Shown: piece after piece, positions 16,949-33,692 of the stretch
Position numbering within the stretch: position 1 is the first letter of the stretch
Layout of the letters: every line of letters starts with the position of its first letter
Notes under the pieces: model-generated
The model's database searches: none
Told to the model about the DNA's origin: nothing
The model's input: the letters and a program-made list of their open reading frames with translations, nothing else
Program-made: the position numbers and the translations under genes
Source: Chthoniobacteraceae bacterium
GTDB taxonomy: Bacteria; Verrucomicrobiota; Verrucomicrobiia; Chthoniobacterales; Chthoniobacteraceae
Assembly: GCA_044226525.1 (NCBI GenBank)
Contig: JBGAGV010000006.1
Coordinates: 157,232 to 221,231 of the forward strand
DNA: 64,000 nucleotides
Direction: 5' to 3'

Positions 16949-18556
16949 CTAAGTCTTTTTTTCCTTGATGATGGCTTGGATCCACAAGCCTTCATTTGCT
17001 CCGTAGGTGCCGGCCTCGCCGTTCAAACGGGAGATTCCTTCCTTGCCGCCGAGATGGTGCAGGCCGACGACGCTCCATTCTTCATTGAAGACCGGGCTGC
17101 CGGAACTGCCGCCCTCGGTGGGGGCTCGATAGTGCAGCCGGACGACTCCCTCGATGGCCGGCCGGCCTTTGGTCGGTCCCTCATGATCGAGTAATTCGTT
17201 GTCTTGCAGCGAAAACGCCAGTTCCCGGCCTCCGGGATGGCCGATGACATAAACGCGCTGCGCCGGCTGTCCACCTGCCAGCGGAAGAGTCTTCCCGGCG
17301 GAGAGCGCCCCAACCCCTTGGGGCTGCTTCTTGAGCTTGAGGATGCTCGCGTCGTGGCGGTCGGGAGGAGAACTCCACAACACCTTTTCCACCTCGATGC
17401 GCTGAACCGGCGACAACGCCTCGAACACCACCTCGGCCGAGTCGGCCTTGATCGCCTCGCCCGATCCTTCCGCATTGACGACGTGGTGGTTCGTCAGCAC
17501 GACTAGCTCATCCAGGTCGAGGCCGAGATCGTGAGCCCGCATGAGAAAGCCCGTGCCCTGCCGACGAATCCCGCGCAATTCGATGGCCACCACGGAACGA
17601 GCCTTTTCCAGCCCAAGCAGCATCCACCGATACGTTTTCGGTCCGTCCGCCCCGAGAATCGCCTCGAGTTGGCCGCGGGCTGGTGTTGGCGTGGCGGCGA
17701 GTTTTTTGAAGTCCGTTGGGGTCAGTTCGAGGGTGCCACCTGGCTTCCGCATCAGTTGCGCCTGCAGAATAGCCAGCAAGGGGCGTCCGTGCTTCTTGTC
17801 TTCGTCCAGCCCCCACACTTCGCAAAACTGCCGCAGGGTGCTGCCCAGGTGGAAGGCTTCCACCTTCGGATGGGTGACATACGTCCTCAAATGGCGCGCG
17901 ACATTTTTCCAGTCTCCGAGGGCCAGACATGCCTCGGCCATGGTGGCGGCGTGCCACTCGTCTTGCTGGGAGGAGGGAACTTTTTCGAGCGCTTCCAACA
18001 CCCGTCGGGCCAGGTCCACCGGATCGAGTTCCGGTGCGGCCGGGATCCCCAGACGTCGTGCCGCAGCGAGAACGGCCACCACGTTGATTCCCTGCCATGT
18101 CCACGATCCTCCCGCATCGACCACGGCCCGATAGGCGGAAACGGCTTGCTGGAGCGCGGTGCGCGCCGCCGGCGAATGTTTGTCTCGTGCGTCGAAAAAG
18201 ATTTGTTTGTGTGCGCGCCCGAGCAGCCCGGTCGCTTCTCCCCAAGCTGGAAATGATTTCGGCAGCCATCCCGTCAAGGTGCGCAAGAGATCGATCGCCG
18301 CCGTCGCTTTACCAGTTTCGATCAAGGCCTGCGCATACCAGCACCGCACGACCGCATCCTCGGGCGCGTGCCGGCCCGCGGCCTCGGCGAGGCGCCCCAG
18401 CATGGCGAACTCCCGCATCCCTCGCAATTTTTTGGCAGTGGAGCCGGCGGCATAGAGGTCTTCATGGCTGGGGGTGCCACGCAAACGATCCAGGCATTCT
18501 TCCGCGGCGCGCAACAGGGCGGCGCGCGGATCCTCGGGATTCGCTGGCTGGCTCAT
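16949..18556 (-). CDS. Helical-repeat (TPR-like) N-terminal domain fused to C-terminal trypsin-like (S1) serine peptidase
   Basis: The C-terminus has ...VVLTNHHVV (His)...GGSSGSPVF (catalytic Ser, GxSGSP)...VVGLHHLGG. The N-terminal ~330 aa are alpha-helical and Ala/Leu-rich. The start ATG at 18556..18554 overlaps the stop of the upstream hydrolase (ATGA). Confidence 0.7.
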   Translation of the reverse strand: MSQPANPEDPRAALLRAAEECLDRLRGTPSHEDLYAAGSTAKKLRGMREFAMLGRLAEAAGRHAPEDAVVRCWYAQALIETGKATAAIDLLRTLTGWLPKSFPAWGEATGLLGRAHKQIFFDARDKHSPAARTALQQAVSAYRAVVDAGGSWTWQGINVVAVLAAARRLGIPAAPELDPVDLARRVLEALEKVPSSQQDEWHAATMAEACLALGDWKNVARHLRTYVTHPKVEAFHLGSTLRQFCEVWGLDEDKKHGRPLLAILQAQLMRKPGGTLELTPTDFKKLAATPTPARGQLEAILGADGPKTYRWMLLGLEKARSVVAIELRGIRRQGTGFLMRAHDLGLDLDELVVLTNHHVVNAEGSGEAIKADSAEVVFEALSPVQRIEVEKVLWSSPPDRHDASILKLKKQPQGVGALSAGKTLPLAGGQPAQRVYVIGHPGGRELAFSLQDNELLDHEGPTKGRPAIEGVVRLHYRAPTEGGSSGSPVFNEEWSVVGLHHLGGKEGISRLNGEAGTYGANEGLWIQAIIKEKKT

Positions 18557-26433: not shown

Positions 26434-26578
26434 GGCGCGCTTCCGGCCAGGCGAACCTCAGCTTCGCTCGGTGGGGCGTTGGCGAGGAGAAATGCGTGTG
26501 CTGCGCAGCATGAGGTTGCGCGATCCGATTCTGGAGTTTGTCTCACCTGTCAATGTCAAGAGTTGCCCCCTGCCGCGG
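26434..26578. repeat. Copy A of a ~145-bp intergenic repeat (about 85% identical to copy B)
   Basis: gcttccggccaggcgaacctcagcttcgctcggtggggcgttggcgaggagaaatgcgtgtgctgcgcagcatgaggttgcgcgatccgattctggagtttgtctcacctgtcaatgtcaagagttgccccctgccgcg aligns with 27596-27738. It ends 71 nt upstream of the DUF4203 gene. Confidence 0.6.
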
Positions 26579-26648: not shown

Positions 26649-27185
26649 ATGGAAATCCCCGTCCTGCTCCTTGGCCTTGCCCTGCTGGTCGCGGGCCGCC
26701 GTGTGTTCTGGCTGTTTGTGGGAGGCGCAGGGTTTCTCTATGGCTGGAGCATTGCCCCGATTTTGGTGCCCGACGGGTCGGCTGGGGCGTTGCTCCTCAT
26801 CGCCGTGGCAGCCGGGGTGATCGGCGCCGTGCTCGCCATTTTCGCCCAGAAGCTGGCCGTTGGATTCGCCGGGGGCATGATGGGCGGCTACCTGGCGTGG
26901 GCCTTTGTCCACGGCACCACGTGGGAGCCTCATCATTTCACCGAACTGTCCTTCCTCGTCGGCTTCGTGATCGGCGCGGTGCTCGTCCTCGTCCTGTTTG
27001 ACTGGGCGCTCATCATTTGGTCGTCCATCGCGGGCAGCGCGTTGATCCTTCAGACCTTTCATCCCGCGCCCTTGCTCAGGGGCCTTCTGTTTCTCGCACT
27101 GGCAGCCCTCGGCATCATCTTCCAGGCGAATCTGCTGGCCCGGGAGCGCCAGCGAAGGATCCTGCACAGCTACGACGCCCCTTGA
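26649..27185 (+). CDS. DUF4203-like polytopic membrane protein
   Basis: MEIPVLLLGLALLVAGRRVFWLFVGGAGFLYGWSIAPILV... has 5-6 Gly/Ala-rich TM helices. Confidence 0.6.
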   Translation: MEIPVLLLGLALLVAGRRVFWLFVGGAGFLYGWSIAPILVPDGSAGALLLIAVAAGVIGAVLAIFAQKLAVGFAGGMMGGYLAWAFVHGTTWEPHHFTELSFLVGFVIGAVLVLVLFDWALIIWSSIAGSALILQTFHPAPLLRGLLFLALAALGIIFQANLLARERQRRILHSYDAP

Positions 27186-27197
27186 ACGGCTGAAGCC

Positions 27198-27566
27198 ATG
27201 CCCGCCTCGTTCACCATCGACACCGACACCGCCTGGGTGCTCACCACGGCCACCGGCATTCTTTCGTATGCGGATGTCGTGGAGCTGATCCGGGCCAAGG
27301 TGAAGGCCGGAGTGATGGCTCACGACGAATTGGTCGATGCCCGGAACGTCACGCTCGACCTGTCCTCGGCCGACCTGCCCGCCATCGTCCGCGAGGTGCG
27401 CACAGCGCTCGGGGATCGTGCCCCGGGCCGGACCGCGATCGTCACGAATAGCGGTTTCCTATATGGACTCGCCCGTGCCTACGCCGATCTAATCAAGGAC
27501 ACCCAGCCGACCTTCGAGGTATTCACCGATATGCTAGAGGCCCGGCAGTGGCTTGCGAAGCGGTAA
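27198..27566 (+). CDS. Hypothetical protein (STAS/SpoIIAA-like fold suspected)
   Basis: 122 aa, MPASFTIDTDTAWVLTTATGILSYADVVELIRAKVKAG... It starts 13 nt after the DUF4203 gene stop, so the two are probably co-transcribed. Confidence 0.5.
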   Translation: MPASFTIDTDTAWVLTTATGILSYADVVELIRAKVKAGVMAHDELVDARNVTLDLSSADLPAIVREVRTALGDRAPGRTAIVTNSGFLYGLARAYADLIKDTQPTFEVFTDMLEARQWLAKR

Positions 27567-27595
27567 GAGACGCGGGATCGGAACCACCAAGGGGC

Positions 27596-27738
27596 AAGCT
27601 TCCGGTCACACGAAGCTCAGCTTCGATCCCTGGGGCGTTGGCGAGGCGAATGCGTGTGCTGCGCGGCACGAGGTTGGCGATCCGATTTGGAGTTTGTATC
27701 ACCTGTCAATGTGAAGAGTCGACCCCTCCCGCGCGCGA
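27596..27738. repeat. Copy B of the ~145-bp intergenic repeat
   Basis: gcttccggtcacacgaagctcagcttcgatccctggggcgttggcgaggcgaatgcgtgtgctgcgcggcacgaggttggcgatccgatttggagtttgtatcacctgtcaatgtgaagagtcgacccctcccgcgcg contains a perfect palindrome, cgaagctcagcttcg. It lies at the boundary of the AT-richer island and upstream of the 27906 gene. Confidence 0.6.
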
Positions 27739-27905
27739 CAGACCGTTCAAGGCGGGCTTCTTCAAGAGCGCTAAGCTTTTGCGATTGAACGCTGGATAGA
27801 CCATGTGTAGAAAATTCAGATCGCGATCAATCCCAAAATTTGTTTTCAGCCTGTGCTCCTCTGTCGCTCAGTTAAATTGACTGATCTAGCTTCGCCTTAT
27901 AAGGT

Positions 27906-28307
27906 ATGAAACTACATACCGGAAGGACTCTCTTGGCGGGCGCATTTCAAGCACATAGGTTGGCGTCGGCTGGTGGAGACATCCCAGGTGGTTCAGGTGC
28001 ACTTCTGCTCTGCTATTCTGTAGAGTGCGGGCTGAAACTCGTTCTGCTTATTCAGCGAAACCTGCACAGCACGGAGCGGCTTTCGGATGATGATCTAACG
28101 CACGATTTGGATGAACTCAGCACAAAGGTTGGGTGCCGACATCGCATTGGAATAACGGATGTAGCCCAGCCCGCGAGCCTGCGCCTCGAATCTCGGCGAT
28201 TACATGAACTTTTTCGATATGGAGGGAAGCTAAGTAACAATAATTTACAAGCGTTGCGAAGTAGGCTGCAGGAAATTGTATTTTGGATCGAGGAGCAACT
28301 CGAATGA
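27906..28307 (+). CDS. Hypothetical 133-aa protein, translationally coupled to the downstream dual-NTPase gene
   Basis: MKLHTGRTLLAGAFQAHRLASAGGDIPGGSGALLLCYSVECGLKLVLLIQRN... The stop TGA (28305-28307) overlaps the ATG at 28304 of the next gene (ATGA). It lies in the AT-richer island. Confidence 0.5.
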   Translation: MKLHTGRTLLAGAFQAHRLASAGGDIPGGSGALLLCYSVECGLKLVLLIQRNLHSTERLSDDDLTHDLDELSTKVGCRHRIGITDVAQPASLRLESRRLHELFRYGGKLSNNNLQALRSRLQEIVFWIEEQLE

Positions 28308-30907
28308 AGGAGTTGTTTACATGGCGAGACGTTCAGGATCAGGTTGACGGCTCTAACGAAAAGCCGTGGATTCGGGCGAGTGCCGACACCACCACCCTCC
28401 GAATCGAATGCCTCCCTGGACAAGCGGCGGAGTGTAGCCGCGTTTTGACAGATATTATTCCTTCGTTCGAGGCGGAGACGAATTCAGTCCGCCTCGCTGG
28501 ATTGCCCTCGAATCAGCGGAAACTCATTGTGGAGATTATCGAGGATGCTGATGTTGCCCCGGTGGTCACGATTGAGAGACCGCTATGGACCAATCGGACC
28601 GCTGAGTTGAAGCCGCCAGCAGCCCCGCTGAAATCAAAAGTCTGTGCTTTCTATTCATACAAAGGAGGCGTGGGGCGAACGACCGCTGTCGTTGCGATGC
28701 TGGCGGAAATTTTGCATCAACATCCTACCAGCCGCGTCTTGGTGATCGATGCGGATTTTGAGGCTCCTGGTCTAACCTGGCTTCTTAAGCCACCCACTGA
28801 GGATGGCTTTTCTTATATCGACGCACTTTCGTTGCTTCATGATGCCGACGATTGGAAACGCGATGCGCTACCTCTCATTGCCGATTGCGTCCGACTGGGT
28901 AGCGCAACTCTCGAGATACCGGATGGGCGTCGCGATTTTTGGTTTCTTCCGGCGGTTCGATCGGTGGACCAACTTTTTAAAATGCCGATTCGTCCAGAAC
29001 AAGTGGTGCGTGCACGAGGACGAGCATGGTTGATGGCTGACTTTTTATTCGAACTTTCGCAAACGCTGAAATTTGATGTAGTGTTGGTGGACATGCGGAC
29101 GGGGATAACAGAGTTTTCATCACCGCTTTTGCTGGACCCTCGTGTTGAAAAGATTTTGGTGACCTCCTGCAATGCTCAATCGGTGCGGGGGACAGTAGAG
29201 ACTTTACGGCGGGTGCAAAAGGCTCATCCGTCTAGTGAAAAGCCGGAGGTCATTGTTAGCCTTGTGCCTCCCGATTCGGGAGAGTTGTTTGAAAAAATTA
29301 GCACTGACATAATTGACGTATTCAATGATCAGCCGCCAACGGGAGGGGATTCGGTCGGCTCGCAGCTTGGAATTCACCGGTCTGATTTTGCGCAGGAGCT
29401 TCTGCATTTCGAAAGCTTGGACGACTTTGCGTTAAAACGGCTTTCCGGAACTCAGCTTGGAAAAAAGGTTGCCCCCGATTTAGTTGAGCGCCTTGTCGAT
29501 ATTTCTGATTCAGTGCCTGCGCGTGAAGACGCCGGAGTTTCGGCCGCGATAACGCCAAAGGATGTCGCAGAGGCAGCGAAAAAATTGGAGTTTGCCGAAC
29601 AAAATTCTGAAGTGGGGTTGTTACCGATCCCCGCTTTGCGAAAGCTTTTAGAGGTGCCGACCGGGAGACTTCCGATAGCTAACGTGATTGGTGCAAAGGG
29701 GGCGGGTAAAACATTTGCCTGGGGACAGTTGGTTCTTGCGAAACGTCTCTTGAAGTTTTCTCAACTCGTCTCGACGACTCATGAAGTGCGGGACGCGCAA
29801 ATATTTCCACTTTTAGCTCCCACTTCATTAAGCCCGCATTTGGCGGATCAAGTGAGGGCACTTGAGGAGCAGGTGGTAGGGAGTCGTGAATCGAGGCTGA
29901 CGCGTTTTGCGCTCAAGGATCAAGTGGAGCGGTCTGATACCTCATGTGAGCCATTTGATTTTTGGTTGTGTGCTATAGCCGATCGTTTGGGTTTGCCCGT
30001 TCCAGCGGGGAACAATGCTCGTGAAAAGCTTCGATCAGTCTTTTCTCAGGTTGAGCCCATTCTTCTGATTGTGGACGGTCTAGAAGATGCACTTCAGGTA
30101 ACCGTTGGGACGGGATTAACTGAACCGCAAAAGAAAATCCTCCGCTACCTGTTGCAGGATTTTCCTAGCATCCTTCGGGAATCCGGAGTTGATAATATTG
30201 GCTTGGTCGTTTTTGTGAGACGAGACTTGGCTGCATTGGCTATCAGGCAAAACTTTGGGCAGTTCGAGGCTCTTCACCGCGACACGACGTTGACATGGAC
30301 GCCGGCAGACGCATTGCGCTTACCGCTCTGGTTGCTGGCGAGACTTGGGTGGGACACAAAACTTCCGAGTGTCGCGACTGCGTCATACGATGAATTGCGT
30401 AAAGCCTTGTTTGCATTTTGGGGCGAGAAGATGGGGGGGAAGCGCGAGGCTTTTACGGACGAATGGGTAATCGCGACCCTTTCAGACTTTAATCTCGTTT
30501 TGCAGGCGAGAGATATGACGAGGTTAGTGCGCTACGCTGCGGAGAATCACGGGATTCGATCATTTCCAATTCCGCATACAGCCCTGAGGAACGCAGTGCC
30601 ATCTGTGTCGCAAGAGAAAATTGCCGAACTGGGAAAAGAAGTTGCCGCGTTGGAATCAATATTTTCGCGTCTCCAAGGGCATGCCATTAATTTGAAAGTG
30701 ATTCCTTTTTCTCCAACGGATGTAGGTCTATCGGCAGAGGAGGTCGTATTTATGCAGCAGCTAGGGTTGCTCGCCCCTTCCGACGAACCGGATAAGTTGT
30801 TCATGCCGGAAATTATTCGGCATGGCTTGGGCTTTAAACTAGCCAACAGGGGCCGTGCTCGCGTTCTTGCGCTTTATCGAGAGGCGCGGCAGCGGCGACA
30901 ATCATAA
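28304..30907 (+). CDS. 874-aa two-NTPase protein: ParA/MinD-type (SIMIBI) P-loop domain with Arg-substituted Walker A + C-terminal NACHT/STAND-like NTPase
   Basis: The N-terminal half has VCAFYSYKGGVGRTTAVVAMLAEIL...RVLVIDADFEAPGL...FDVVLVDMRTGITEF, a ParA/MinD deviant Walker A with GRT in place of GKT. The C-terminal half has LPIANVIGAKGAGKTFAWGQLVL (Walker A) ... EPILLIVDGLEDAL (Walker B of hhhhDGhDE type, as in NACHT/STAND). The first ~100 aa are unassigned. It lies in a visibly lower-GC region. Confidence 0.7.
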   Translation: MKELFTWRDVQDQVDGSNEKPWIRASADTTTLRIECLPGQAAECSRVLTDIIPSFEAETNSVRLAGLPSNQRKLIVEIIEDADVAPVVTIERPLWTNRTAELKPPAAPLKSKVCAFYSYKGGVGRTTAVVAMLAEILHQHPTSRVLVIDADFEAPGLTWLLKPPTEDGFSYIDALSLLHDADDWKRDALPLIADCVRLGSATLEIPDGRRDFWFLPAVRSVDQLFKMPIRPEQVVRARGRAWLMADFLFELSQTLKFDVVLVDMRTGITEFSSPLLLDPRVEKILVTSCNAQSVRGTVETLRRVQKAHPSSEKPEVIVSLVPPDSGELFEKISTDIIDVFNDQPPTGGDSVGSQLGIHRSDFAQELLHFESLDDFALKRLSGTQLGKKVAPDLVERLVDISDSVPAREDAGVSAAITPKDVAEAAKKLEFAEQNSEVGLLPIPALRKLLEVPTGRLPIANVIGAKGAGKTFAWGQLVLAKRLLKFSQLVSTTHEVRDAQIFPLLAPTSLSPHLADQVRALEEQVVGSRESRLTRFALKDQVERSDTSCEPFDFWLCAIADRLGLPVPAGNNAREKLRSVFSQVEPILLIVDGLEDALQVTVGTGLTEPQKKILRYLLQDFPSILRESGVDNIGLVVFVRRDLAALAIRQNFGQFEALHRDTTLTWTPADALRLPLWLLARLGWDTKLPSVATASYDELRKALFAFWGEKMGGKREAFTDEWVIATLSDFNLVLQARDMTRLVRYAAENHGIRSFPIPHTALRNAVPSVSQEKIAELGKEVAALESIFSRLQGHAINLKVIPFSPTDVGLSAEEVVFMQQLGLLAPSDEPDKLFMPEIIRHGLGFKLANRGRARVLALYREARQRRQS

Positions 30908-30974
30908 CATTTCCGCTTGCGCCGCAGCGGATGGGACGCTGCGGCGGGGATCGAAGCGGGAGCTTCGAACTACT

Positions 30975-33026
30975 TTAGGCGGCTAGCTTATCGATCGGCG
31001 TGGGTTTCGGCGGCTCGGGGTCGGACTTTACTTCCTGCCAGGTGGTTAAGACTTGGAGGATCGCCTGGAAGAGGCCGACTTCGGCGCCGGCTTTGCCTTC
31101 CTGGCCGCCGAGCAAGACGACGCGCTCGGGGACGAGGGGTTGTTCGCTTTGGGCGAGTTGTTGGGCGACGAGGTTGATGGCGTAGAGACGCGGGTCGGTG
31201 AAGGCTTCGACCTTCTGCCGGCTGACTTCGGCTTCGGCCTGGCCGACCTGGGCGACGCGGGCGGCTTCACCCTGGCCTTCGAGTTCGGTGGCGCGGGCGC
31301 GGCCTTCGGCGAGGGTGACTTCGCGTTTGGCGAGGCGCTCGGCTTCGGCGAGTTGGGCGGCACCGCGGTTGCCCGCGATCTCGATCTCGACGCGGGTCTG
31401 GGTGAGCTGCGTCTGGCGCTCGGCTTCGGCCTGGGCGTGGTTCAGCTGTTTCTGCTGCATGGCGGCTTCCTGCTGCTTCGCGAAGGTTTCTTTTTGCTCC
31501 TCGGCGAGGCGGCGCTGGCGGAGCTGATCGAACAGGCGATCGATCGGGTCTTCGGCGCCGGGTTTGAGCACGCCGGCTTCGGGGCGGCCGATAAGGACGG
31601 CGACGCAGTTGATATCGAACTCCTGGAAACGCTTGCCGAGTTGCTCGGTGGCGTGGCGTTGGATTTCTTCACGACGAGTGAGCAGGTCGAGCATGTGGCT
31701 GCTCTGCGCCACGTCGCGGAAATACGCGGTGAGGATCGGGTCGAGCGTCTGCGTGATGAGGCGGCGCACGTCGCCGAACCGCTGCACGACGCGCGGGGCT
31801 TTTTCGTAGTCGATGTGGAGCACGAGCGACAGCGGGAGCAGGGGCTCGTAACCGTCGGCGGTGATGAGCGGGATGCTGGTGAGATGCTCGTCGTAACGAT
31901 GCGCCTCGACCTGGCCGCTGATCCAGCGGAGGACGAAGTTCACCGTGGGCACGTGCTCGACTTTGAGCGCGTAGGGATTGAGCGCGTATTTGCCGGGCGC
32001 GAGGGCTTCGCGCCAGACACCGCGGCGACCGGCTTCGACCTGCATGCCGTAGCGGAATTGCGCGCCGGTGACGTCTTCACCGCTCGCGCCGTAGTAACTG
32101 ATGACGACGCCGACGTAGCCGATGGGGATGAGGGTTTTCGGTTGCAGCTCGACGCTCGCGAACCAGCGGTTCACGAAATAGGTGCCGTCGGTAAGGACTT
32201 GCAGTTGTTTACCGCGGCGACCGCCCAGGGCGAGGAATCCCTCGGGATCCTGGAAGTAGTTGTGGCCGCCATCGGTCGGCGTGCCGACCTGCGGGGCGAT
32301 GAATTCGCCGGGCTCGAGCGTGGGGCCATCGTGAATGGTCACGACGCCGATGAGATCGTGCGGCGAGAGTTTGCTCGCGTCGGCCTGCACAGCGGGGTCG
32401 CCGCTGCGTTGCACGTAGTAGGCGCTGCCGATGAGGACGGGCTCGAAGCCATTCGCTCCATTGAGCTCTTCCTGCCAGGTGGCGCATTGTTCGCGTTCGC
32501 GGCGATCGACCGGGCCGGCATGGACGCCGGTTTCGGTGATGACGACGAAGAGCGCGGTATTGATGGCATAGACGCCTTCACGCAGGATGAGGCGCTGGCG
32601 GCCGCGCTGGCCGTTATTTTCCAGGAAGCCGACGGCGTCCTGGAACGAGTTGCAGGTCACCACGGCGCCGAGGGTCTGGGTCGGGCCGAGCGGCAGGCCG
32701 TCGCGGGCATAGACGTAACCGATGCGGCCTTCCGCGACGGTGACGAGCGGGACGGTGTGCACGCGGAACATCCAGAAGGGATATCCGAGATGGAGGCCAC
32801 CGCGCAGGACGCGAGCCTGGAAGCCCGCTTCACCTGCGAGGGCGATGATGCGTCCATGCGCGAGCGAGCCGCGATGGGACCAGAGTTTTTCCACGATGCC
32901 CACGCGATCGTGCGGGATATACCGCAGACCGAGGAGGAAGTTGAGCAGCAGGAGGGTAAGGGCCAGGCCCGCGATGATTTTCACGAGCAGGAACCCGACG
33001 GTGAACAGCGTGATGATGCCGTTCAT
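30975..33026 (-). CDS. Flotillin-family SPFH/band-7 protein (YqiK/FloA-like)
   Basis: N-terminal TM segment (MNGIITLFTVGFLLVKIIAGLALTLLLL) followed by an SPFH domain. The C-terminus is a long Ala/Glu/Gln-rich coiled coil (…AEAERQTQLTQTRVEIEIAGNRGAAQLAEAERLAKREVTLAEGRARATELEGQGEAARVAQVGQAEAEV…), as in flotillins. Confidence 0.85.
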   Translation of the reverse strand: MNGIITLFTVGFLLVKIIAGLALTLLLLNFLLGLRYIPHDRVGIVEKLWSHRGSLAHGRIIALAGEAGFQARVLRGGLHLGYPFWMFRVHTVPLVTVAEGRIGYVYARDGLPLGPTQTLGAVVTCNSFQDAVGFLENNGQRGRQRLILREGVYAINTALFVVITETGVHAGPVDRREREQCATWQEELNGANGFEPVLIGSAYYVQRSGDPAVQADASKLSPHDLIGVVTIHDGPTLEPGEFIAPQVGTPTDGGHNYFQDPEGFLALGGRRGKQLQVLTDGTYFVNRWFASVELQPKTLIPIGYVGVVISYYGASGEDVTGAQFRYGMQVEAGRRGVWREALAPGKYALNPYALKVEHVPTVNFVLRWISGQVEAHRYDEHLTSIPLITADGYEPLLPLSLVLHIDYEKAPRVVQRFGDVRRLITQTLDPILTAYFRDVAQSSHMLDLLTRREEIQRHATEQLGKRFQEFDINCVAVLIGRPEAGVLKPGAEDPIDRLFDQLRQRRLAEEQKETFAKQQEAAMQQKQLNHAQAEAERQTQLTQTRVEIEIAGNRGAAQLAEAERLAKREVTLAEGRARATELEGQGEAARVAQVGQAEAEVSRQKVEAFTDPRLYAINLVAQQLAQSEQPLVPERVVLLGGQEGKAGAEVGLFQAILQVLTTWQEVKSDPEPPKPTPIDKLAA

Positions 33027-33692
33027 GATGGATGTGTTCTCTTTCTATATGTCGGCTTTGCGAACACTGCGGTCCGGGCTCGGGTGGGCTGGAGCGGCGT
33101 GGCGGCCTTGGGCCGTTCACGTTTGGTGCTGCCGCAGGACGGCAGGGCTCCCGGCATCCGGGCACGGGTGTGCGCGAAGCTGGCTATTTTCGAGAGGATG
33201 GAGCGCCGCTTTGGCGCCCGGTGAGTTTGCTCACCGAGGGTTGCCGCGGCTCCCTGCCTCTGGGTGTTGAGCGGACGGAGTTAGCTGTCGGGCTTGGGCC
33301 ACTCAGTGCCCCCGGCGCCGCAGTGCGCCGTTCGCCCCAGTGGCCGCTCTTCTAGGAAAGAAGGGCGGCGGAATTTGGGTCCCCCGTTGATCGGGCCACT
33401 TGGCTCGATCATTACGCTGGCAAAGAACCGCTATTAGTATGACACAAGCGATGGCGGGGTCAACTCGGCCCGGCCTTCGGGTGGGCGTTCTGAGAGGCTA
33501 AGGTGCTGCCCAGTCGAACTTTACAGCAAAACCCCGAAAAGGATGGCATGCCGTCGAAATCGCCACAAAAAGGCGTTTGGGCAGGAGATTCATTGTTGAC
33601 CCCGAGCTGGGAAACAGGTCTCCTCGCCCGACTAAATTGCAGTGGAGGCGCTTCATCGTGCTCATGAAGCGCTGCACAGCCCATTAACTTCC

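Follow-up and report, generated by a model that had tools for sequence, protein, structure and literature searches.

The window analysed here is a stretch of 64,000 nucleotides (nt) from contig JBGAGV010000006.1 (positions 157,232 to 221,231 of the forward strand) of a Chthoniobacteraceae bacterium (assembly GCA_044226525.1), and the present work concerns a low-GC island at 27780-30950 that carries two genes. The small gene (27906-28307, + strand) encodes a protein of 133 amino acids (aa) with a HEPN fold, a fold shared by many toxins that cleave RNA; it is the proposed effector, and the large gene (28304-30907, + strand) encodes an 867-aa double NTPase. The genes share an ATGA at 28304-28307, in which the TGA stop of the small gene overlaps the ATG at 28304 of the large one, and a Shine-Dalgarno-like GAGGAG read from the sequence at 28289-28294 (+), within the 3' end of the small gene, lies 9 nt 5' of that ATG. 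The translationally coupled pair proposed in an initial annotation of this DNA, made from the sequence by eye, is thus present, with a correction to the length of the large protein: the 874 aa given there correspond to the maximal open reading frame (ORF) from a TTG at 28283, a start that is inconsistent with the ATGA overlap, whereas translation from the ATG yields 867 aa that are 100% identical to a public protein (P0001).

The island was delimited by its base composition. In 400-bp windows its GC content averages 0.514 (range 0.49-0.55) against 0.628 (standard deviation 0.028) in the rest of the 64-kb window, which places the island mean at z = -4.0, and it is the sole multi-kilobase stretch of the window with GC below 0.56, GC falling that low over more than 600 bp nowhere else. 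The estimate by eye of about 50% GC against about 65% therefore pointed the right way, and the A/T-rich string quoted in support of it is found at 28975. GC at third codon positions (GC3) is 0.47 in the small gene and 0.51 in the large gene, compared with 0.78-0.82 in five flanking genes; because this contrast is very large, it points to horizontal acquisition, as had been suggested initially, and the gap of about 0.3 to an acquisition that was fairly recent. The 5' border lies near 27750, where GC in 100-bp windows drops from 0.57-0.64 to 0.42-0.48 (27750-27850), and the 3' border at about 30850-30910. The AT-rich segment at the 5' border (27750-27905, +) likely contains the promoter or leader of the operon; a scan of this segment for the sigma-70 consensus gave no match.

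No direct or inverted repeats of at least 8 nt common to both borders were found, nor an integrase or transposase in the flanks, and the sole tRNA found is 12 kb from the island. The mobility genes, tRNA target or att-like repeats looked for as marks of a horizontally acquired island were thus absent. This absence of a mobility gene or att-like repeat would suit a housekeeping or regulatory role for the pair, for example that of a positioning ATPase of the ParA kind and its accessory subunit, in which case the low GC would record an old transfer with no functional significance. That account sits poorly with the recent acquisition indicated by the GC3 gap, and also with the absence of the pair from 80 of 80 metagenomic loci of relatives that carry an orthologue (62-83% identical) of the adjacent flotillin gene. 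The flotillin-bearing relatives without the pair also lack the genes upstream of it, so that a clean empty site was not obtained.

The family of the small protein was gathered from genomic loci by tblastn, an earlier word-indexed search having given 2 relatives. The exact 133-aa sequence is absent among ~15 billion proteins, and the small gene was not called in a public Logan contig with an identical large gene; the small ORF therefore seems to be unannotated publicly, including in the source record. A profile search of 1.84 billion representatives recovered 724 clusters of relatives at 50% identity, and these relatives are almost all standalone proteins of 130-150 aa. The small protein is a four-helix up-down bundle of two α-hairpins, the arrangement by which HEPN domains are recognised, and in alignments of 27 and 48 sequences its residues Y37, E40, K44, H66, R104, and Y105 are invariant. 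The corresponding codons lie at 28014-28037 (Y37-x2-E40-x3-K44), 28098-28109 (H66, in THDL), and 28203-28223 (H100-x3-R104-Y105). Invariant E40 and K44 (ECGLK) form the E-x3-[KR] motif of helix 2 of HEPN domains. The catalytic Rx4-6H motif is absent: R104 is invariant and has no His 4-6 residues downstream (RYGGKLS), and the conserved histidines of the family are H66 and, commonly, H100. In the AF0298-type HEPN-T proteins and in AbiV, an abortive-infection protein, the Arg is likewise kept, the His of Rx4-6H is missing, and a conserved His stands between helices 2 and 3; E-x3-K together with this relocated His is the alternative active site proposed for these proteins (PMC3710099).

The Pfam HEPN model PF05168 found no match to the window small protein at sequence level, and the assignment is aided by PDC-M28, a candidate system of PADLOC-DB v2 (cassette CAS_00115, 121 RefSeq instances) with components A, B, and C. 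The PDC systems go back to cassettes located within BREX, DISARM, or type I restriction-modification (RM) loci (Payne et al., bioRxiv 10.1101/2024.01.29.577857). The PDC-M28A profile does not match the window small protein; it is matched weakly by 13 of 48 members of the small-protein family, with a best E of 0.0015. Bona fide PDC-M28A in turn matches PF05168 over its full length (E 3.8e-4, 21.1 bits, cut-off 22), carries the NCBI name 'HEPN domain-containing protein', and has the same E-x3-K ... H ... R-Y pattern. We conclude that the small protein has a divergent HEPN fold of the HEPN-T/AF0298/AbiV type in which R-Y replaces Rx4-6H. We regard it as the putative effector of the pair, probably an RNase or an RNA-binding toxin. 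The HEPN fold of the partner is one of two points by which the present analysis goes beyond the initial annotation, the other being an Arg in place of Lys in the ParA-type Walker A of the large protein. In two metagenome-assembled genomes (MAGs) no intact small gene is seen: a Lachnoclostridium MAG (locus L010, 7636-7990) has it broken into two short ORFs, and in a Symploca MAG (locus L053, 7795-7977) it is detectable only as a C-terminal remnant. These are either decayed copies or assembly errors.

The AlphaFold (AF2) model of the large protein, built with 28 homologues, has a pLDDT (predicted local distance difference test) of 85.3 and a pTM (predicted template modelling score) of 0.83, and comprises five regions: aa 1-80 form an α/β domain, which a disordered linker joins to a Rossmann-like NTPase (aa 110-400); the second NTPase spans aa 455-680, and aa 690-867 are helical with a small β element. 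The N-terminal α/β domain (28304-28543, +) is a confident segment of the model with four strands and two helices and is followed on its C-terminal side by a linker of low confidence (aa 83-101). No family in Pfam, PADLOC, or NCBIfam matched this domain; the corresponding N-terminal region has a counterpart in PDC-M28B, whose profile matches the large protein at aa 82-165 only (2.3e-18), with profile positions 100-180 aligned to that segment.

The ParA/MinD-fold domain (aa 110-400; 28631-29503, +) contains KGGVGRT (aa 120-126; 28661-28681), IDADFEAPG (aa 148-156; 28745-28771), and the Walker B motif VDMRTG (aa 262-267; 29087-29104). Its membership in the ParA/MinD group rests both on the fold and on a profile match above the curated cut-off, namely that of NF047398 (KGGVGR-motif variant AAA ATPase) to aa 112-304 (142.6 bits, cut-off 90); in Pfam, the large protein gave matches to AAA_31/CbiA and AAA_16 that are all sub-threshold. 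The residues K120-G-G-V-G-R125-T126, D151-x-E153-A-P-G, and D263-x-R265-x-G267 of this module are invariant across phyla. Its Walker A is not the deviant form KGGxxGK[ST] with both Lys residues: the signature K120 is kept, and the P-loop Lys is Arg (R125) in 28 of 28 aligned homologues, which were collected independently of the KGGVGR motif, and likewise in PDC-M28B proteins and in a fusion to TIR. Walker-A Lys-to-Arg mutants of ParA-family proteins bind nucleotide and show little hydrolysis. By analogy, the natural substitution is predicted to let the domain dimerise in a nucleotide-dependent way while hydrolysis is slow or absent, so that the module would act as a dimer switch rather than as a motor.

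The second P-loop ATPase, which is STAND/ORC-like (aa 455-680; 29666-30343, +), contains the Walker A motif GAKGAGKT (aa 463-470; 29690-29713), the Walker B motif IVDGLED (aa 589-595; 30068-30088), and FVRRD (30212-30226), the R639 of which is invariant. The positions invariant across phyla are G463-x-K-G-x-G-K469-T470, D591-G-x-E594, and R639-x-D641, and the motif set of STAND proteins, consisting of a Walker A (G463-T470), a Walker B with its acidic residue (D591/E594), and a sensor-1 Arg (R639), is therefore complete. No STAND family model reached its curated threshold on the window protein (AAA_16 21.3 bits vs 32.6). Among 26 homologous C-halves, matches were obtained to nSTAND1 (11), AAA_16 (11), NACHT (7), nSTAND3 (2), and nSTAND5 (2), all below the curated thresholds, with E values from 1e-5 to 1e-2 for the STAND-type models (nSTAND1, NACHT, nSTAND3, and nSTAND5). 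Among solved structures, its nearest neighbours are SSO1545/PABY2304, ORC/Cdc6, and BrxC rather than Avs or Apaf-1. The initial annotation was right to separate two P-loop modules, since they are carried by separate genes in the related PDC-M28 system, and every motif that it quoted for them (KGGVGRT, IDADFEAPG, VDMRTG, GAKGAGKT, and IVDGLED) was located.

The remaining C-terminal region (aa 690-867; 30371-30904, +) is helical with a small β element, contains many residues that are invariant among homologues, and is a candidate sensor or winged-helix-like module. The NF047389 profile (P-loop ATPase, Sll1717 family) matches aa 571-793 at 45 bits (E 8.2e-12), below its cut-off of 75, which by sequence indicates a related rather than a member-level protein. 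The PDC-M28C profile matches aa 691-795 (2.3e-5), and an hhalign comparison of the C-half family profile with bona fide PDC-M28C gave a probability of 84.5% (E 7e-6, 284 columns) in an alignment that reaches the conserved PEI-R-x-GLGF motif. The ~350 aa after the second Walker B, which had been put forward as a possible effector or sensor, are mostly a helical/β continuation of the second ATPase; the suggestion of a sensor survives as a candidate role of the C-terminal region, in which no sensor of the repeat type was detected.

The distribution of the pair was scanned in 185,579 GTDB species genomes, with one genome per species. Relatives of the large protein occur in at least 546 stretches, a count that may include non-fused KGGVGR proteins, and its homologues (>540) are mostly full-length at 860-930 aa. 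Locus analyses were performed on the best 80 of these at least 546 stretches, all 80 of which have the fused form. The best match among them is from Verrucomicrobia (47% identity), and the 80 loci belong to Firmicutes (~32, mostly Lachnospiraceae), Cyanobacteria (~20), Proteobacteria and Desulfobacterota (~10 together), and Actinobacteria (5), as well as Myxococcota, Verrucomicrobia, Chloroflexi, Acidobacteria, Nitrospirae, Spirochaetes, Bacteroidales, and one Methanotrichaceae archaeon. By tblastn, a homologue of the small gene lies directly upstream on the same strand in ~75 of the 80 loci. When all ORFs were clustered, the large gene was found in 80 loci and the small gene in 70, and no other gene was conserved, the next most frequent cluster being an ABC transporter in 11 loci; the ideas that a third gene is conserved with the pair, or that a mobility gene accompanies it, were rejected on this basis. 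Small and large genes overlap by 4 or 1 nt at 41 of the 70 junctions, and 64 of the 70 have a gap of no more than 20 nt. The pairwise distances of the two proteins are strongly correlated (r = 0.90, Mantel p = 0.001), and the two genes are inherited as a unit.

The pair is patchily distributed over at least 12 phyla and one archaeon, and its genomic context is not conserved. Both observations argue against the housekeeping or regulatory role introduced above, as do the HEPN fold of the partner and the homology of the pair to a cassette embedded in BREX, DISARM, or RM loci. The annotation of many homologues as MinD-like, BcsQ-like, or ParA family and the metabolic or transport genes that make up most of the neighbours can be cited in its favour; on balance we regard such a role as very improbable.

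Mobile replicons and viruses carry the pair only exceptionally. Among 72,556 plasmid records there are 2 full-length copies, both on Ralstonia replicons of ~2 Mb (megaplasmids), and the pair was found in 0 of 50,697 phage records and in 1 of 2.9 million viral contigs. A 206-aa 'ParA family protein' of Microcystis phage Mic1, the product of gene Mic1_05 (locus L181, 3034-3654), has 24% identity (E 4e-7) to the large protein, aligning to aa 437-665, thus to the second ATPase and not to the ParA-like domain; as judged from the alignment, this match probably reflects P-loop similarity only. The rarity of the pair on plasmids and phages is unexpected for an addiction module, in which the HEPN protein would be a constitutive toxin, the large ATPase would be the antitoxin that restrains it by nucleotide-dependent binding or by modification, and the unit would stabilise itself or the DNA that carries it. 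Such a toxin-antitoxin arrangement has been predicted in print for an analogous dyad of a HEPN protein and a ParA/Soj-like ATPase (PMC3710099), and it would account for the tight translational coupling and strict co-inheritance of the two genes and for the movement of a two-gene unit among variable contexts. An 867-aa ATPase with two engines is nonetheless far more elaborate than an antitoxin requires, and the MAE_18760 HEPN protein of the published dyad has the canonical Rx4-6H that is absent in the window family. Many abortive-infection systems are themselves like toxin-antitoxin systems, so that this account overlaps with one based on defence; taken by itself we consider it an unlikely one, with some merit.

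Recognised defence genes form a minority of the immediate neighbours of the pair (n = 118), namely mad3 three times, DpdF, PglZ, SspH, PsyrT, and HmaA. Matches of neighbours to Cas3 and PbeA were rejected, the proteins being RecG-type helicases. Strong enrichment of defence islands among the neighbours was not shown, and those neighbours that recur encode ABC transporters and the like; support for defence in particular is modest.

The reading that we favour, and to which we give about an even chance, is that the pair is a horizontally acquired, self-contained two-gene conflict module in which an NTPase-gated HEPN effector would serve in defence or abortive infection. In its favour are the foreign origin, the behaviour of the two genes as a unit, the HEPN fold, the invariant NTPase motifs of both modules, the few defence genes among neighbours in other genomes, the fusion of a KGGVGRS domain to TIR, and the kinship with PDC-M28. 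The analysis shows the foreign composition, the coupling and co-inheritance of the genes, the three folds, and that kinship. The large protein, with its N-terminal α/β domain, ParA/MinD-fold switch, STAND/ORC-like ATPase, and helical C-terminus, would be the sensor and regulator of the small protein, a direction of regulation that we infer, like the defence function, the sensing part, and the RNase activity. Translational coupling would yield a complex of fixed ratio in which the HEPN subunit is kept inactive by the large protein. The STAND/ORC-like ATPase and the C-terminal region would read a cue derived from an invader, and ATP-dependent assembly would then follow, aided by the dimer interface of the Arg-variant ParA-like domain. 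HEPN subunits would thereby be juxtaposed or released so that an active site forms, and cleavage of RNA would arrest growth or translation before the invader finishes its cycle.

Several observations weigh against this reading. PDC-M28 is itself a phage-defence candidate only, with a predicted function, and the window small protein had no match among Pfam, NCBIfam, PADLOC, or PDB sequence profiles. Its RNase activity is uncertain because the canonical Rx4-6H is absent, the ParA-like module may be inactive, given its Walker-A Arg, and no sensor of the repeat type was detected in the C-terminal region of the large protein. Most immediate neighbours across the homologous loci are ordinary genes (ABC transporters, RecG, and KARI), so that the association with defence islands is weak, and no recognised defence gene lies beside the pair in the window.

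The missing catalytic motif could also mean that the roles are reversed, with the large protein as the effector and the HEPN protein as a non-catalytic adaptor or a sensor that binds nucleotide or RNA. The ParA/MinD-like domain would then dimerise on the nucleoid or membrane and block chromosome segregation, cell division, or the partition of invader DNA. MinD/ParA-like domains predicted to be inactive occupy effector positions in NTP-dependent conflict systems (PMC7159879), and the pTM of the large-protein model suggests that its domains pack as one body, both of which would fit. The invariance of E40, K44, H66, R104, and Y105 across phyla, in contrast, looks more like that of a site for catalysis or ligand binding than like that of a scaffold alone, and the same pattern of residues is the proposed alternative active site of AF0298 and AbiV. 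The KGGVGR domain is moreover found with TIR, an established effector type, which suggests that the KGGVGR part is regulatory: plasmid pSchITTGS70c of Sinorhizobium chiapasense (locus L083, 3688-6214) encodes a 734-aa protein in which an N-terminal KGGVGRS ParA-type domain is fused to TIR_2, and the Arg-variant ParA module is hence reused with another effector type. We therefore think a reversal of roles improbable. The Sinorhizobium gene is preceded by a 106-aa ORF, and a second TIR protein is encoded nearby.

If the pair proves to be a working immune or toxin module, as in the favoured reading of a conflict module with a gated HEPN effector, it would validate a whole clade (at least 546 stretches and 724 clusters of the small protein) together with the candidate PDC-M28. 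It would also reveal what is done by the 'KGGVGR' ParA-like proteins, now known only by the name of a motif, and how two unlike NTPase engines, a dimer switch of the ParA type and an ATPase of the STAND/ORC type, work together on a HEPN effector without the canonical catalytic motif. Loci of this kind would escape the defence finders now in use.

The surroundings of the island contain several further features. A ~145-bp repeat is present in two copies in the 64-kb window, at 26434-26577 and 27593-27733 (both +), that are ~88% identical and bracket a TM198-like 178-aa gene and a 122-aa gene (26649-27566). The repeat noted initially is therefore real, but both copies lie upstream and it does not bracket the island; it was rejected as an island border, there being no repeats at the borders themselves. 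An Rfam search with the element gave no match, and it may be a leader, a REP-like element, or a duplication scar. Downstream, two G+C-rich hairpins (30920-30968) lie between the large gene and a convergent Band_7 gene, as expected from the strong hairpin described there initially: the first has a perfect G+C stem of 10 bp (CGCCGCAGCG/CGCTGCGGCG, 30920-30946) and the second the stem TCGAAGC/GCTTCGA (30951-30968), and the 71-nt spacer that contains them (30905-30975) has a dG of -34.6 kcal/mol. The two hairpins are probably a bidirectional terminator that was not listed by a terminator scan because it has no T-run. The Band_7/flotillin-like gene (30975-33026, -) encodes 683 aa and is preceded ~230 nt upstream by a cyclic di-AMP (c-di-AMP) riboswitch of the ydaO type (33255-33415, -; 46.4 bits, gathering score 38), a position that suggests control of an SPFH-domain protein by c-di-AMP. 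About 10 kb upstream of the island, a 535-aa protein (16949-18556, -) combines TPR-S ('tetratricopeptide repeats-sensor') with a trypsin-like peptidase domain, an architecture typical of NTP-dependent conflict systems, and its gene adjoins one for an α/β-hydrolase.

Compared with ParA, MinD, and McdA, the first module of the large protein differs in the Arg for Lys of KGGVGR[ST], which every member seen has, PDC-M28B and the TIR fusion included, and in belonging to a multidomain protein that has neither a ParB/MinE-type partner nor a conserved chromosomal position. The second module shares with the Avs/NLR-like STAND proteins a Walker A, a Walker B of the form hhhhDGxE, a sensor-1-like Arg, and weak matches to nSTAND1, NACHT, and AAA_16, and the pair shares with them an effector fold of the nuclease type. 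The effector of the window pair is, however, a separate polypeptide, the large protein has no TPR, WD40, or LRR array, and it has an additional N-terminal NTPase of the ParA/MinD type; a 2026 survey of STAND proteins does not mention a ParA fusion (PMC13581612). With HEPN-T (PF05168; AF0298, TT1696, ST0689, and the sacsin HEPN domain) and AbiV, the small protein has in common the E-x3-[KR] motif, the retained Arg, and the relocated His. The R-Y dipeptide and Y37 are invariants specific to the window family, and the partner of HEPN-T is a minimal nucleotidyltransferase, whereas that of the window protein is a double NTPase.

The initial annotation knew of no described STAND fusion with a ParA/MinD module and a small coupled partner, but two similar systems are on record. 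The first is the dyad of a HEPN protein of the MAE_18760 family and a ParA/Soj-like ATPase that was predicted in 2013 to be a toxin-antitoxin system (Anantharaman et al. 2013, Biol Direct 8:15; PMC3710099). In this dyad, as in the window, a HEPN gene adjoins a gene for a SIMIBI-class ParA/Soj-like ATPase, and the HEPN protein is the proposed toxin and the ATPase its nucleotide-dependent regulator. The MAE_18760 family, compared here by its description, differs in its conserved Rx4-6H and in its fusions to Schlafen, HEPN/Toprim-NTD1, and comparable domains, and the paper mentions no second, STAND-like ATPase of the kind present in the window pair.

The second and closer precedent is the candidate PDC-M28 (HEPN-like A, KGGVGR ATPase B, and ATPase C). 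In the literature searched, no paper came up under the names 'KGGVGR', 'Sll1717', or 'PDC-M28'. Its unfused form is exemplified by plasmid pSM-2 of Skermanella mucosa (locus L100, 3357-6591), where JL100_RS33970/65/60 encode a 125-aa HEPN protein, a 445-aa P-loop NTPase (KGGVGRS), and a 508-aa hypothetical protein with 4-nt gene overlaps and match PDC-M28A, B, and C at 7.5e-25, 6.4e-95, and 1.5e-120, respectively. Another unfused PDC-M28 operon, on plasmid p3 of Gemmobacter fulvus (locus L099, 3223-4984), adjoins a tyrosine recombinase fragment and an IS110 transposase. PDC-M28 and the window pair share the order of a HEPN-like protein, an N-domain with a KGGVGR ATPase, and an AAA_16-like ATPase, along with overlapping stop and start codons, the E-x3-K ... 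H ... R-Y pattern of the HEPN proteins, and the same C-terminal region. They differ in that PDC-M28 has three genes, whereas B and C are fused in the 867-aa protein of the pair, which therefore lacks the three-gene form of the system; because the similarity is also remote, PADLOC would not call the window locus. On sequence evidence, the pair is a two-gene, fused, and highly divergent relative of PDC-M28, and with such precedents it is a fused variant of a known candidate system rather than a wholly new architecture.

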